Below, one piece after another: positions 31,583 through 60,691 of a stretch of DNA of 64,000 bases; position 1 is the stretch's first letter; every line of letters begins with the position of its first letter. The notes beneath the pieces were generated by a model. It did no database searches. It was not told the origin of the DNA and saw only the letters and a list, made by a program, of their open reading frames with translations. Location: contig JBFLWF010000004.1 in assembly GCA_040758355.1 (NCBI GenBank), positions 32,001 through 96,000 on the forward strand, written 5' to 3'. Source of the stretch: Nitrospirota bacterium. Its GTDB lineage: Bacteria; Nitrospirota; Thermodesulfovibrionia; Thermodesulfovibrionales; Dissulfurispiraceae. A program made the translations under genes and the position numbers.

Positions 31583-32888
31583 AAGACTCGAAAGAATAAA
31601 AAAGACAACTGCGGTTCATCTCGCAATGGAGGCAAAGGATGCCCTGAAAAAGATAACAGAGGATTTCCCGGATAATCCTGATGCAATGGAATACTTTTAT
31701 TCCCTGCTTCATAAGTTTTATACAGATGGCGAGCTTTTTAAAGAGGGGGTTCGTGGGGTAGACAAAGTCTCCACCACGCTCATAGGAACGATGTGCATTC
31801 AGGTTCCTGAAGAGCTTATCTATGCAGCAGGAGCAAGACCGATAAGATTATGCAGCGGCGCTTACGCATATGATCAGACAGGCGCTGAATTCATGCCTGC
31901 GAAGTCATGCTCTCTGGTTAAGGCAACACTGGGGATGCTGAATATCAAAAATATGCCTTTCAAGGATTCATTGAGCGCCATAATAGTCTCTACAACCTGC
32001 GACCAGAAGAAAAAGGCGGCGGATATGCTAAAAGAAATGGGCTATAAGACATATACGCTCGAAATGCCTTCGGTAAAAGATACCGAGGAGGCGCGCTTTT
32101 ACTGGCAGAACTCGGTAAAGAATTTTGCATCTGCGATTGAGGATATATCCGGAAACAGGATTACAAAAAAAGGATTGAACGAAGCAGTGATGAAGACTAA
32201 CAGGGCAAGGGCTGAATTCAGGAGATTCAATAACTTCAGGAAGAGCGCACATCCGCTTATATACGGAAAAGACTCATTTGTTGTAGCCAATGCCTACTTC
32301 TTTGACGGCATCGAACAATGGACAGAGGCGCTTGCAAAACTCAACGCCGAACTCGAAGATAGAGACAATAGAGGGGTATCGGTTGCTAATAGGCATGCGC
32401 CGAGGATTTTGTTTACCGGCTCTCCTGCGATATTTCCAAATCTCAAGCTTCCTCTGCTTATAGAGCAGTCGGGCGGGGTTATCGTTGCCGATGAGGTATG
32501 CTCTTCTTCAAGGCTTCTGTATGACTCTGTGAGCTTCGATGAAGGCAATCTCTATGACATGATCCCTGCCATCGCAGACAGATATTTAAAGCCGTGCACC
32601 TGCCCATGTTTTGCGGAAAATGAAGACAGGAAGAGGAAACTGCTCGAAATGGTAAGAGGCTTTAATGTTGACGGCGTTGTGTATCAGGCATTTTCAGGAT
32701 GTCATCTATACGAGATGGAGCATAAGTCTGTAGGAAAATTGCTTGAAGCAGAAGGGGTTCCGATGCTCTATATAGAGACCGATTACAGCCCTGAAGATAC
32801 CGGACAGTTGTCCACGAGGATTGAGGCGTTCATGGAGTCTATTAAAAACAGGAAGAGAAGTAAATTGCAAGGAGGATGTGACAGGTGA
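31572..32888 (+). CDS. 2-hydroxyacyl-CoA dehydratase-family protein, double-cubane-cluster (DCCP)-like
   Basis: GTMCIQVPEELIYAAG, RLC, SC, TTCDQKKK, EVC, CTCPC, GCH, IETDYS, TRIEAF. Confidence 0.8.
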   Translation: MEIERLERIKKTTAVHLAMEAKDALKKITEDFPDNPDAMEYFYSLLHKFYTDGELFKEGVRGVDKVSTTLIGTMCIQVPEELIYAAGARPIRLCSGAYAYDQTGAEFMPAKSCSLVKATLGMLNIKNMPFKDSLSAIIVSTTCDQKKKAADMLKEMGYKTYTLEMPSVKDTEEARFYWQNSVKNFASAIEDISGNRITKKGLNEAVMKTNRARAEFRRFNNFRKSAHPLIYGKDSFVVANAYFFDGIEQWTEALAKLNAELEDRDNRGVSVANRHAPRILFTGSPAIFPNLKLPLLIEQSGGVIVADEVCSSSRLLYDSVSFDEGNLYDMIPAIADRYLKPCTCPCFAENEDRKRKLLEMVRGFNVDGVVYQAFSGCHLYEMEHKSVGKLLEAEGVPMLYIETDYSPEDTGQLSTRIEAFMESIKNRKRSKLQGGCDR

Positions 32889-57380: not shown

Positions 57381-57549
57381 TTAGAAAATTGGAGAAATTA
57401 GTCAATAAGTAATTGAGTCATTGAGTCATTGGAAATTTTTAATAACTTAATAACTTATTTACTCAATTTCTAATTTCTGCAACTGGGGTTTACTTTTTTT
57501 ATTGTCTTATGCTACAAAATTAGCGATTGTTAAGAAATTGTAAACCGAT

Positions 57550-57852
57550 ATGACACTTGGCATACTTGTTACTACCGACAAATACAGGGATGATGTTGTG
57601 GGCATCACAGAGGCAGCAGTTGGCAGGGGACATCGGGTTGTTCTCTTTTTCATGGATGAAGGCTGCCGGTTGATAACAGACAGCAGAATTGTTTCCCTCA
57701 AAGACAGAGACGGCGTTTCCATGAGTCTCTGTGACTTTAACCGGAAGAAGATGGGGATTTCTGATGAAGAAGTTCCAGAGGGGATTATCTGCGGAAGCCA
57801 GTATGACAATGCGGTTATGAACAGGGAATCGGATAAAGTGATAGTTCTTTAG
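57550..57852 (+). CDS. DsrE/TusD-like sulfur-relay protein
   Basis: LFFMDEGC, SLC, GSQY, DKVIVL. Confidence 0.75.
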   Translation: MTLGILVTTDKYRDDVVGITEAAVGRGHRVVLFFMDEGCRLITDSRIVSLKDRDGVSMSLCDFNRKKMGISDEEVPEGIICGSQYDNAVMNRESDKVIVL

Positions 57853-57910: not shown

Positions 57911-58189
57911 ATGAGCCATGAGCAAAAGAAAATAGCGGTAATTGTGAGGGAAAGACAGTCCGAGGCTTTGCGCATGGGCATAGGACTTTCAGTGCTAAAT
58001 GATGTGGATATATACATATTTGACAGAAAACTTGAAGCATCCGATGATATTTCATTAAACCTCGAAATGATCAAAGAAATGAGATTGTGCCTCTATACAA
58101 ATACTGCTTTAAATGAAGGTATAGAGTATATTCCAACAGAAGATATTGCGAAAAGACTTCTAAAATATGATAATATTTTGCCGTATTAA
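57911..58189 (+). CDS. DsrF/TusC-like protein
   Basis: KKIAVIV...EALRMGIGL...YDNILPY. Confidence 0.6.
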   Translation: MSHEQKKIAVIVRERQSEALRMGIGLSVLNDVDIYIFDRKLEASDDISLNLEMIKEMRLCLYTNTALNEGIEYIPTEDIAKRLLKYDNILPY

Positions 58190-58191
58190 TA

Positions 58192-58359
58192 ATGAAAATA
58201 CTTCATATATTAAAGACAGAACCCGAAGACAGCGTTAAGAAGATAATCGAAGAACATAGAAAAGGCAATGATGTGGAAGTCCTTAGCATGAATGAAAATA
58301 AAAATTACGACCTGATTGTAGAGTTTATAGAGAAGGCAGACAAGGTCATGGTCTGGTAA
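58192..58359 (+). CDS. DsrH/TusB-like 55-aa protein (not in ORF track)
   Basis: MKILHILK...NYDLIVEFIEKADKVMVW; starts 2 nt after the previous stop. Confidence 0.65.
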   Translation: MKILHILKTEPEDSVKKIIEEHRKGNDVEVLSMNENKNYDLIVEFIEKADKVMVW

Positions 58360-58401
58360 AACAAGCCTTTGGCTTGTCAATAAACAATACAGGAGGTTTA
58401 A

Positions 58402-59499
58402 ATGGAGGGGATACCACAGGCAAGCATTATGGTCTTGCTCAGCGGTGTGCTGGTAGGCGTTTTGCTCGGTTTTGTGCTTCAACGCGGCAGGTATTGAATG
58501 AACTCAGCGTTCAGAGACGTGATCTTTGTAAACGATATAACATTGCTGAGGGCATGGCTTCTGGCATTGGTAATTTCTATTATCGGTGCTAACTTTATTG
58601 AGGACATTGGACTTATGGGTGCTGACGGCTTAAGGCGTCAGGCATTTGCCCCTGTTGCAGCCATTGTTGGCGGCTATATCTTCGGTCTCGGAATAGTGAG
58701 GGCAGGCGGATGCGGCAGCGGCGTTCTGTACAAACAGGGTGAAGGGCAATTTGCTGCATTTGTTGCTGCACTCGGTTTTGGTGCAGGGCTTATAGCGACA
58801 ATGCATGGCCCGCTTAAGCCTGTAATGAAGTTTTTGAAAAGCTATAAGATGTCTGTAGGTACGGATGCGGATGGCGAACCAATAATGAGCCCTGCATTAT
58901 GGGATATATTTGGAGGCGGAAATATCAAGTGGATAGTTATTGCTGTGATTGCAGCGATAATAATTCCCATTGTGCTTAAGGGCAGGCCGTTTGCAAAAGG
59001 ACCCAAGAAGGGATGGTCATGGTCATTGGGTGGGTTTATACTCGGATTTGTCGTCATCTTTGCCTGGTGGACATCTTACTATTGGGGTGGGCAGGCAAGG
59101 GGACTTTCATTCTCCGGCCCGACATCTGATTTCTTTTTATTTACTCTTATTGGAAACAGTCAGGCGCCCTTTGACCCGATGTTCAATATCTTCGGCATAG
59201 GCATAGCTACATGGAGCGCACTGTATGTTATAGGTGTTCCGATAGGTGCATACATTAGCTCAAGAGGTCTCGGTGAATTTAAATTAACTGCTCCAAAGGA
59301 CCCGAGCGAACTGGTGAGGGTATTTACTGGAGGTATTATCATGGGATTCGGCGGCGCAGTTGCGGGTGGCTGAACTGTGGGTCATTCCTTGACAGGTATG
59401 TCAAGTCTGGCTTTACAGAGCATAGTCGCTACGGTGTTTATAATCCTCGGCAACTGGACAATGACTTACTTCATGTTCATAAAGCCGATGAAGGATTAG
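58402..59499 (+). CDS. yeeE: YeeE/YedE (TsuA-like) transporter with two selenocysteines (UGA at 58495 and 59371), 365 aa
   Basis: AGGAGG RBS; LQRGRY-U, AGGCGSG and AGG-U-TVGH occupy the three conserved Cys motifs; hydrophobic frame is open on both sides of each UGA. Confidence 0.88.
58508..58534 (+). promoter_or_regulatory. Putative SECIS for UGA 58495
   Basis: CAGAGA-CGTGA-TCTTTG on a CGTT/AACG lower stem; loop 20 nt after the UGA. Confidence 0.6.
59388..59405 (+). promoter_or_regulatory. Putative SECIS for UGA 59371
   Basis: CTTGACA-GGTA-TGTCAAG perfect stem; GGU loop 21 nt after the UGA. Confidence 0.72.
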
Positions 59500-59609
59500 C
59501 GGGCAAGAGGGAAGCGGAAATTCCCCTTTGGGAATCGGTTTCCTGTTTTAGGAAAGAGATTTGTTGTTGAAAACTTTAAGTTTGTTGTAAAATTAAGCAA
59601 ATGCATGCA

Positions 59610-59625
59610 TGGCATGTTAATTGCT
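59610..59625 (+). promoter_or_regulatory. Sigma54 -24/-12 promoter
   Basis: TGGCATGTTAATTGCT. Confidence 0.7.
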
Positions 59626-59655
59626 AAAATAAATAACGAAAGGAGGTGAAGTTGG

Positions 59656-59880
59656 ATGAAGAAGGTTTTAGCCCTGATCGTAGCACTGCTCTTCGTATTC
59701 GCTGTCTCAACAGTAGCTTTCGCTGCAGAGAAGGCAGACGCCCCTAAGGCTGAGAAGGCAGACAAGAAGGCAGACAAGAAGGCAGACAAGAAGGATAAGA
59801 AGGACGAGAAGAAAGACGAGAAGAAGGAAGATAAGAAGGACGCAGCACCAAAGAAGAAGAAAGCAATCGAGGGCTGCTAA
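59656..59880 (+). CDS. Small exported Lys/Asp/Glu-rich peptide ending in EGC
   Basis: AGGAGGTG RBS, AFA signal peptide, ADKK repeats, own promoter and terminator. Confidence 0.8.
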   Translation: MKKVLALIVALLFVFAVSTVAFAAEKADAPKAEKADKKADKKADKKDKKDEKKDEKKEDKKDAAPKKKKAIEGC

Positions 59881-59895
59881 TTCAGTTAACAATAA

Positions 59896-59930
59896 AGGGT
59901 GGAAGCTGAATGCTTCCACCCTATTTTTTT
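59896..59930 (+). terminator. Rho-independent terminator
   Basis: AGGGTGGAAGC-TGAAT-GCTTCCACCCT plus T7. Confidence 0.85.
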
Positions 59931-59944
59931 GACCAAAAAGAAGA

Positions 59945-60691
59945 ATGAGGAACTGGAAAGACAATATTTATTTCATTCTTGTTGAACCGAAAGAATCGGG
60001 CAATATCGGCGCATCTGCAAGGGCGATAAAGAATATGGGGTTTAAAAACCTCTGTCTTGTAAATCCTCCGTCTGTTATTACCGACGAGGCAAGGTGGCTT
60101 GCGTGCAATGCCCTCGATGTCCTGAATTCTGCAGAGATCTTTAACAGCCTTACAGATGCTGTAAAAGACAAGCCTATTATCGCAGGGACAAGCCGCAGAA
60201 AAGGCCGCCGAAGGGGTGTTTTCCTGAATGTTGAGGAAGGAGCTGGACGGCTTCATGACATTGCCCTGAAGAATAAAGTGGCTATCTTATTTGGCAGAGA
60301 GGATAGAGGGTTATATAACGAAGAAGTTGAAGAATGCGGATTTCTTATCACAATACCAACCAGCAAGGAGCAGCCTTCATTGAATTTAGCCCAGGCAGTA
60401 TTGATTGTCGCATATGAGCTTTCAAAATCAGAATACAGCGTTCAGCAGTCAGCAGTCAGCAGTCAGAAATCAAAGGCTGAAAGACTCTCAAGTCATAATG
60501 AACTAACTGCCTTATATTCAAGGATATCGAAAATATTAAAGCTTCTTGAGTATATTCCTAAAGGCGACAGAAACCTTGAAAAGAAGATCATGCAGAACCT
60601 GAAGCACTTCATAGGAAGGGCGGGGCTCACTGATTGGGAATTAAAAATGCTGCACGGAATATGCTCGCAGATAGAAAAGAAGATAAAATAA
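59945..60691 (+). CDS. trmJ: TrmJ/LasT SPOUT RNA methyltransferase
   Basis: GNIGASARAIKNMG, FGREDRGL, SLNLAQAV. Confidence 0.9.
   Translation: MRNWKDNIYFILVEPKESGNIGASARAIKNMGFKNLCLVNPPSVITDEARWLACNALDVLNSAEIFNSLTDAVKDKPIIAGTSRRKGRRRGVFLNVEEGAGRLHDIALKNKVAILFGREDRGLYNEEVEECGFLITIPTSKEQPSLNLAQAVLIVAYELSKSEYSVQQSAVSSQKSKAERLSSHNELTALYSRISKILKLLEYIPKGDRNLEKKIMQNLKHFIGRAGLTDWELKMLHGICSQIEKKIK

Follow-up and report, generated by a model that had tools for sequence, protein, structure and literature searches.

Within a 64,000-nucleotide stretch of DNA from a Nitrospirota bacterium (GenBank assembly GCA_040758355.1, contig JBFLWF010000004.1, forward-strand positions 32,001 to 96,000; the whole stretch is termed the window and is numbered from its first letter), positions 58402-59499 of the plus strand form a single frame of 365 codons that terminates with TAG and is interrupted only by TGA at codon 32 (58495-58497) and at codon 324 (59371-59373). 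The frame corresponds to a transporter gene of the YeeE/TsuA family (PF04143), in which both UGA codons are predicted to be read as selenocysteine (Sec, U). The first is found in the context QRGRY-U-MNSAF and the second in AGG-U-TVGH; between them, codon 104 (58711-58713, plus strand) lies in a GGCGSG motif and is TGC. A ribosome-binding site, AGGAGG (58391-58396, plus strand), is positioned 5 nucleotides before the ATG. Under genetic code table 11 the same frame is cut into open reading frames (ORFs) of 291 amino acids (58498-59373) and 40 amino acids (59377-59499).

When translated through both TGA codons, the protein matched PF04143 (Sulf_transp) over the whole of its 310-position profile (1-310), scoring 238.5 bits where the cut-off is 27 (E = 1.7e-70). 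A phmmer search against solved structures aligned residues 13-361 with residues 3-330 of 6LEO, the YeeE protein of Spirochaeta thermophila (StYeeE; E = 5e-48), and in this alignment U32 matches C22, the cytoplasmic 'third cysteine' which faces a TusA-like partner; C104 matches C91, the central pore cysteine; and U324 matches C293, the periplasmic 'first cysteine' which contacts thiosulfate in 6LEO. By this alignment, Sec would occupy the entrance (324) and the exit (32) of the pore, with a cysteine retained in the centre (104). The first-pass annotation of this DNA had described the two TGA codons at the cysteine positions of QRGRY-C and AGG-C, a full-length read-through product with a good ribosome-binding site, a middle GGC motif that stays cysteine, and an equivalence with the three conserved cysteines of YeeE/TsuA; each of these points is upheld here.

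Exchange of UGA with cysteine codons among relatives

The genome from which the window is taken (99% complete) contains selB (385 bits, cut-off 242), selA (638 bits) and selD (328 bits), as well as a tRNA-Sec (selC) with the anticodon TCA. Its selD gene (C13:51565-52479, minus strand) also carries one in-frame TGA, in the context GAG-U-AAKMG, followed by a GGUCC/GGACC hairpin, suggesting that the selenophosphate synthetase of this organism is itself a selenoprotein. A genome-wide reassignment of TGA was considered and rejected: 12 of the 36 ORFs of at least 250 amino acids in the window end with TGA, so the code is not reassigned.

In order to follow the two codons through related genes, species-representative genomes were scanned, which yielded 73 related loci, nearly all from Nitrospirota or Thermodesulfovibrionales metagenome-assembled genomes; together with the window these gave 74 aligned rows. 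At the three cysteine columns, 26 rows read Sec-Cys-Sec, 13 Cys-Cys-Sec and 30 all-Cys, none read Sec-Cys-Cys, and 5 were partial. Both TGA columns exchange solely with cysteine codons (TGC or TGT), the central column, covered by 70 rows, holds TGC or TGT in every one of them, and there was no in-frame stop, in any of the 74 rows, other than TGA at the cysteine columns. The first-pass annotation had proposed looking for the Sec machinery and for UGA/Cys exchange in homologues; the machinery is present, and the UGA codons are conserved in relatives and replaced only by cysteine codons. A GGAGG-like motif precedes the start in 20 of the 26 Sec-Cys-Sec rows; in the remaining six the match begins inside the gene and the start was not located.

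Outside the two TGA codons the gene changes in the way expected of translated DNA, in frame with its middle part. Across the 26 Sec-Cys-Sec rows, nucleotide differences by codon position numbered 2004/761/4625 before TGA1 and 2041/409/6403 after TGA2, the same pattern as in the middle segment.

A second sample comprised 401 genomes of the phylum, 145 of which had a match at E <= 1e-40. Among the matches listed from this sample, 27 carried two TGA codons, 10 carried one and the rest none, with no other type of stop; 25 of the 34 further genomes belonging to the window's own family had a two-TGA copy, and in 13 of the 27 genomes the two-TGA gene occurred alongside an all-Cys paralogue of 60-70% identity (G013, G090, G114, G068, G130, G163, G178, G193, G220, G268, G308, G342 and G392). 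These pairs may represent selenium-dependent and selenium-independent isoforms. In the window's own genome there was no all-Cys paralogue at E <= 1e-40. That genome does hold two distant YeeE/YedE-family genes on another contig (C15:35222-36563 and C15:42904-44197), both free of in-frame stops and both with a TusA-like gene next after them; among NCBIfam models, YedE/FdhT and TsuA fit them best, in every case under cut-off.

Sec at the periplasmic position alone is a common arrangement, and Sec at the cytoplasmic position alone was not seen in the DNA of the 74 rows. One database protein (P0021), a call of 331 amino acids, starts with MNSAF right after the first Cys/Sec position and has cysteine in the third motif; it may be a Sec-Cys-Cys form.

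A quick maximum-likelihood tree was calculated from the 69 full-length rows (LG+G4, midpoint root, support by the Shimodaira-Hasegawa-like approximate likelihood ratio test only), with Sec read as Cys so that the trait columns carried no signal, and with the partial rows L049, L052 and L082-L084 omitted. All 26 double-Sec rows fell into a single clade, whose 29 members also include two Cys-Cys-Sec rows and one all-Cys row. Its sister clade consists of 17 all-Cys rows, and a more distant clade is made up of 12 all-Cys and 11 Cys-Cys-Sec rows.

Hairpins downstream of the two UGA codons

Each TGA is followed, within the coding sequence, by a hairpin resembling a selenocysteine insertion sequence (SECIS), which has its loop 20-21 nucleotides downstream and lies where the first-pass annotation had put it. 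Hairpin 1 (58510-58530, plus strand) consists of a core stem, 58512-58517 with 58523-58528 (CAGAGA/UCUUUG), and a CGUGA loop (58518-58522) which starts 20 nucleotides past TGA1; hairpin 2 (59388-59405, plus strand) consists of a stem, 59388-59394 with 59399-59405, and a GGUA loop (59395-59398) which starts 21 nucleotides past TGA2.

Comparison of Sec forms with Cys forms revealed a clear distinction between the two at both sites. All 27 Sec forms have exactly the same 15-mer, AGAGACGTGATCTTT, at the core of hairpin 1, and none of the 47 Cys forms has it, even though the peptide of this region, RDVIF, is shared by many Cys forms, which use other codons for it. Among the 24 distinct Sec rows, hairpin 1 is closed by a C-G pair in 14 and by a U-A pair in 10, and this pair is broken in none, whereas it forms in 10 of 45 Cys-form rows; overall pairing was 87.5% in Sec forms versus 58.6% in Cys forms. 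For hairpin 2, the loop consensus is GGUR and 85.3% of cells were paired in the Sec forms, compared with 30.6-41.1% when the partner was slid and 50.4% in 30 Cys forms. Three of its pairs display compensatory changes (GC 28/CG 8, CG 24/UA 9 and GC 11/CG 7), RNAalifold independently predicted the same helix, and the hairpin likewise lies downstream of the TGA in the 13 Cys-Cys-Sec loci. Together these comparisons indicate a constraint at the RNA level 3' of both TGA codons, with hairpins that are kept only in TGA forms, and the earlier placement of the hairpins is borne out beyond chance by the comparative evidence. On the strength of the aligned sequences, the locus is almost certainly a conserved gene for a YeeE-family membrane protein with two Sec residues, whose Sec reading is strongly supported by comparison and whose incorporation of Sec is predicted.

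Neighbouring genes and competing explanations

Three small genes lie upstream of the transporter gene on the plus strand. The first, at 57550-57852, encodes 100 amino acids with a weak match to Pfam DsrE (E = 0.022); its AlphaFold model (predicted local distance difference test, pLDDT, 96.1) retrieved YchN, DsrE/DsrF-like proteins and DsrEFH (2hy5_A, query TM-score, TMq, 0.87) as top matches in Foldseek, and its Cys39 and Cys61 are kept without exception in the 10 sequences compared. The second, at 57911-58189, encodes 92 amino acids with a DsrE/DsrF-like, DsrF-like fold (model pLDDT 94.2; Foldseek matches 1jx7_A, E = 8.3e-5, and 2hy5_B, TMq 0.70) and contains no conserved cysteine. The third, at 58192-58359, is situated directly 5' of the transporter gene and encodes 55 amino acids; it is conserved alongside the other two, gave no family match, and is possibly DsrH-like. 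BLASTP detected no similarity between these three ORFs and the Pfam-recognized DsrE/DsrE/DsrH genes of another locus, L030. In that locus (L030:1379-6110) a Cys-Cys-Sec form of the transporter is clustered with an ArsR-type regulator, two DsrE-family genes, a DsrH gene and a multihaem cytochrome c-like gene, and a TusA gene lies further on.

With a DsrE/DsrF-like fold in two of the three upstream genes, the locus points to import of sulfur into a cytoplasmic relay. The window's genome also contains seven TusA-family genes, all on other contigs, along with dsrAB and dsrC; considered with the DsrE/F-like neighbours, this gene content suggests that reduced sulfur species are imported into a cytoplasmic sulfur-carrier network. 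In this host, an anaerobic bacterium that bears dsrAB, a dissimilatory role appears as likely as an assimilatory one.

Other features were observed on both sides of the transporter gene. The segment 57846-57930, which overlaps the first ATG of the 57911 ORF, folds as RNA at -37 kcal/mol (z -7.96, with 0 of 200 shuffles as good), and a similar repeat-rich stretch is present at approximately 57405-57470. Just 3' of the transporter gene, an ORF of 74 amino acids (59656-59880) gave weak matches, both below cut-off, to the acid-shock protein Asr (38 bits against 50) and to ExtJ, which comes from an operon for selenite/tellurite reduction (21.9 bits against 52.5); past this ORF, a strong two-way terminator-like hairpin occurs at 59896-59922.

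It is conceivable, although unlikely, that the gene encodes a genuine double selenoprotein whose substrate is a selenium species (selenite, selenide or selenosulfide), as for YedE/FdhT. Sulfur and selenium species are chemically similar, and the read-through protein does match the YedE/FdhT model NF033796 in part. The wider YeeE/YedE family includes YedE, a predicted selenium-related transporter according to the available portion of a review. The selenium-metabolism models, however, score far below their cut-offs (83 against 350 bits for NF033796, and 41.2 against 200 for TIGR04112), and also lower than the Spirochaeta-type TsuA model, which at 252.5 bits is the best NCBIfam match of the protein. 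There is no selD, yedF or other selenium-metabolism gene beside the transporter gene here or in 13 sampled loci; the informative neighbours are sulfur-trafficking genes (DsrE/F/H, TusA and rhodanese), and the all-Cys paralogues that accompany the two-TGA gene look like one half of a Sec/Cys isoform pair rather than a sign of selenium-specific function.

A still less probable explanation is that the UGA codons are real stops, such that a leader of 31 residues is followed by a restart at the ATG of UGAAUG and by a 291-amino-acid product which ends at TGA2. In every one of the 27 Sec forms TGA1 is indeed followed at once by an ATG, and the gene calls in public databases begin and end at just these two points. 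The methionine, however, is part of the family motif C-M-N and is equally found in Cys forms; the ribosome-binding site precedes codon 1, contrary to a restart; and purifying selection acts, in the frame of the gene, on the codons 5' of TGA1 and 3' of TGA2. The restarted product would have neither the first helix nor the last ones, and only one of the three essential pore residues would remain in it. TGA, moreover, stands only at cysteine columns, and the hairpins downstream of it are specific to the TGA forms. That the gene is a pseudogene with two nonsense mutations, as the two in-frame stops under table 11 might imply, is scarcely credible: the same two TGA codons stand in the same columns in 25 other loci and, among the matches listed, in 26 other genomes (the two collections overlap, and no species contributes more than one genome), with identities that go as low as about 70%, the relatives contain no frameshifts or other stops, and all three segments are under purifying selection.

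Relation to known YeeE proteins and pore chemistry

The closest characterized proteins are StYeeE (PDB 6LEO, 6LEP, 8J4C and 8K1R) and the thiosulfate uptake protein YeeE/TsuA of E. coli, which belong to the same Pfam family over their full length and share with the window's protein the three pore residues, one to one, as well as the motifs QRGR-x-C, AGGC-x-SG and AGGC-x-x-GH. The window's protein differs in that its outer two cysteines are replaced by Sec, in that it scores below the TsuA cut-offs, and in that the gene has no adjoining tsuB/yeeD and is instead preceded by DsrE/F-like genes.

Predicted selenoproteins have been catalogued in this family previously. The available parts of two surveys (Zhang et al. 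2026, PMC13188914; Zhang 2022, PMC9312934) list YeeE/YedE (PF04143) with the motif GUxSG, one Sec and the representative WP_012471001.1, and supplementary file 4 of Peng et al. 2016, in the part available, counts YeeE/YedE selenoproteins in 5 organisms; the names 'YeeE' and 'YedE' do not occur in the main texts of Zhang and Gladyshev 2008 or of Peng et al. 2016. The catalogued form and the window's protein are alike in family and in having a conserved pore cysteine replaced by Sec, as predicted by comparative genomics. Mapped from the published motif alone, GUxSG appears to fit only the central cysteine motif; here that motif, GGCGSG, keeps its TGC, and Sec is placed at the other two positions. 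In its available text, the 2026 review (PMC13188914) treats different Sec positions as distinct subfamilies and has this one entry for PF04143. Literature searches on YeeE, YedE, TsuA or PF04143 with selenocysteine or selenoprotein returned no description of a double-Sec YeeE. The double-Sec form is therefore taken as a new arrangement of Sec positions within a family for which selenoproteins had already been listed. It is nearest to the Cys-Cys-Sec forms of Nitrospirota (13 loci), which have Sec at the periplasmic, substrate-capturing cysteine and the same downstream hairpin, and to which the window's gene adds a second Sec, at the cytoplasmic cysteine, with a separate hairpin of its own.

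The gene order also recalls the YTD (yeeE-tusA-dsrEFH) type II cluster (PMC13293266, as far as the available text extends), in that a DsrE-like gene with a conserved cysteine adjoins yeeE. Two further small genes are present, the second of the trio with a DsrE/F-like fold and the third (55 amino acids) with no family match; tusA, in distinction, is not in the cluster here. According to the same portion of that paper, type II DsrEFH occurs mainly in Desulfobacterota and Nitrospirota; the string 'seleno' appears 0 times in it.

The structural work on YeeE offers a framework for these substitutions. In the available text of Tanaka et al. 2020 (PMC7449682), the three cysteines of StYeeE are in line across a constriction about 15 Å thick, with C293 contacting thiosulfate on the periplasmic side; all three cysteines are essential in E. 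coli YeeE, and in StYeeE the C91A and C293A derivatives are inactive while C22A still complements. Spacings of 8.6 and 6.7 Å between the cysteines, and an orientation of C22 towards the active cysteine of the TusA-like YeeD, are given in the corresponding part of Ikei et al. 2024 (PMC11073785).

By analogy, we propose that SelB would decode both UGA codons as Sec, each aided by the coding-sequence hairpin just downstream, and that, of the three chalcogen residues which line the narrow centre of an hourglass-shaped pore, the two outer ones would be Sec in place of Cys. Sec324 would capture the substrate on the periplasmic side, Cys104 would occupy the middle, and Sec32 would form the cytoplasmic exit, facing the acceptor cysteine of a TusA-like protein. 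Thiosulfate, or sulfane sulfur/polysulfide, would be imported in this manner and handed to the adjacent DsrE/DsrF-like proteins and to one of the seven TusA homologues. Selenolates are deprotonated and are better nucleophiles and leaving groups than thiols; with selenolates at both ends of the pore, the substrate would be captured at the entrance, and let go at the exit, more quickly. Taken as a whole, this reading, in which a double-Sec YeeE/TsuA protein is produced by hairpin-aided decoding of UGA and imports sulfur species for delivery to carriers, is regarded as highly probable.

A bolder and distinctly tentative extension is that the Sec-Cys-Sec line acts as a covalent chalcogen relay. 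The periplasmic selenolate would attack a sulfane sulfur (from polysulfide, from elemental sulfur, or the outer atom of thiosulfate), Se-S/S-S exchange would carry this sulfur over the 15-Å constriction, and the cytoplasmic selenolate would pass it to a TusA or DsrE-type carrier, the output feeding sulfur oxidation or disproportionation based on DsrC/DsrAB. Selenolates are poor hydrogen-bond donors but excellent nucleophiles, so the repeated, conserved presence of Sec at these pore sites would point to chemistry rather than to mere guidance. Work on SoxT leaves covalent sulfur handover undecided (PMC11582611, in its available text).

Several observations weigh against the proposed reading, each at a different level. 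With respect to mechanism, the model for YeeE in the accessible part of PMC7449682 is a hydrogen-bond relay, in which transient S-H-S hydrogen bonds are made to three cysteines about 7 Å apart, and Li et al. 2024, again in the part available, are sceptical that sulfur is passed on directly by covalent bonds over distances of about 7 Å. With respect to substrate, the TsuA equivalog cut-offs are not reached (252.5 against 400 bits for NF052577, and 149.2 against 645 for NF041049), and the substrate therefore cannot be transferred from E. coli TsuA. With respect to the neighbourhood, the DsrE/F-like trio stands 5' of the transporter gene in 9 of the 73 loci only, with one more locus keeping the middle gene alone; in the 13 sampled loci the neighbours are mostly unrelated genes; and no TusA/YeeD (tsuB) gene was found among the neighbouring ORFs, unlike in characterized tsuA-tsuB pairs. 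With respect to the hairpins, single-sequence folding after TGA1 and TGA2 gave z scores of -1.76 and -1.79, which are not significant alone; an Rfam scan of 58000-60000 at E values up to 10 returned no SECIS or other credible family, the sole hits being weak and on the terminator at 59885-59986; covariation amounts to a single pair for hairpin 1 and three for hairpin 2; and the rows are related, which inflates the shuffle statistics and overstates their significance. It is the contrast between Sec forms and Cys forms, rather than the shuffle controls, which is the stronger argument for the hairpins.

The variant also bears on how such genes are annotated. The earlier expectation that automated annotation would fragment the gene proved justified: 58 of the 120 best database hits are calls of 280-295 amino acids which start with MN[ST]A[FY], at the methionine after TGA1, and end with AGG, before TGA2. 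Public gene calls thus systematically cut the double-Sec form to about 290 amino acids, and as a result the transporter is broken in the metabolic reconstructions made for these sulfate-reducing and sulfur-disproportionating bacteria. Within one family of sulfur-cycling Nitrospirota the double-Sec form occurs widely, and it adds a polytopic membrane protein with two predicted Sec residues to a selenoproteome which is overwhelmingly made up of single-Sec proteins according to the available text of the 2026 review (PMC13188914). Sec occurring naturally at the entrance and the exit, beside all-Cys paralogues in the same genomes, would constitute a ready-made experiment on the movement of sulfur through the pore, one in which selenium gives spectroscopic and crystallographic handles. 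Were the covalent relay to be true, the use of Sec at all three pore positions across lineages (in the catalogued form at the centre, in others at the periplasmic position alone, and here at both ends) would argue that nucleophilic chemistry, and not hydrogen-bond guidance alone, conducts sulfur through proteins of the YeeE family.

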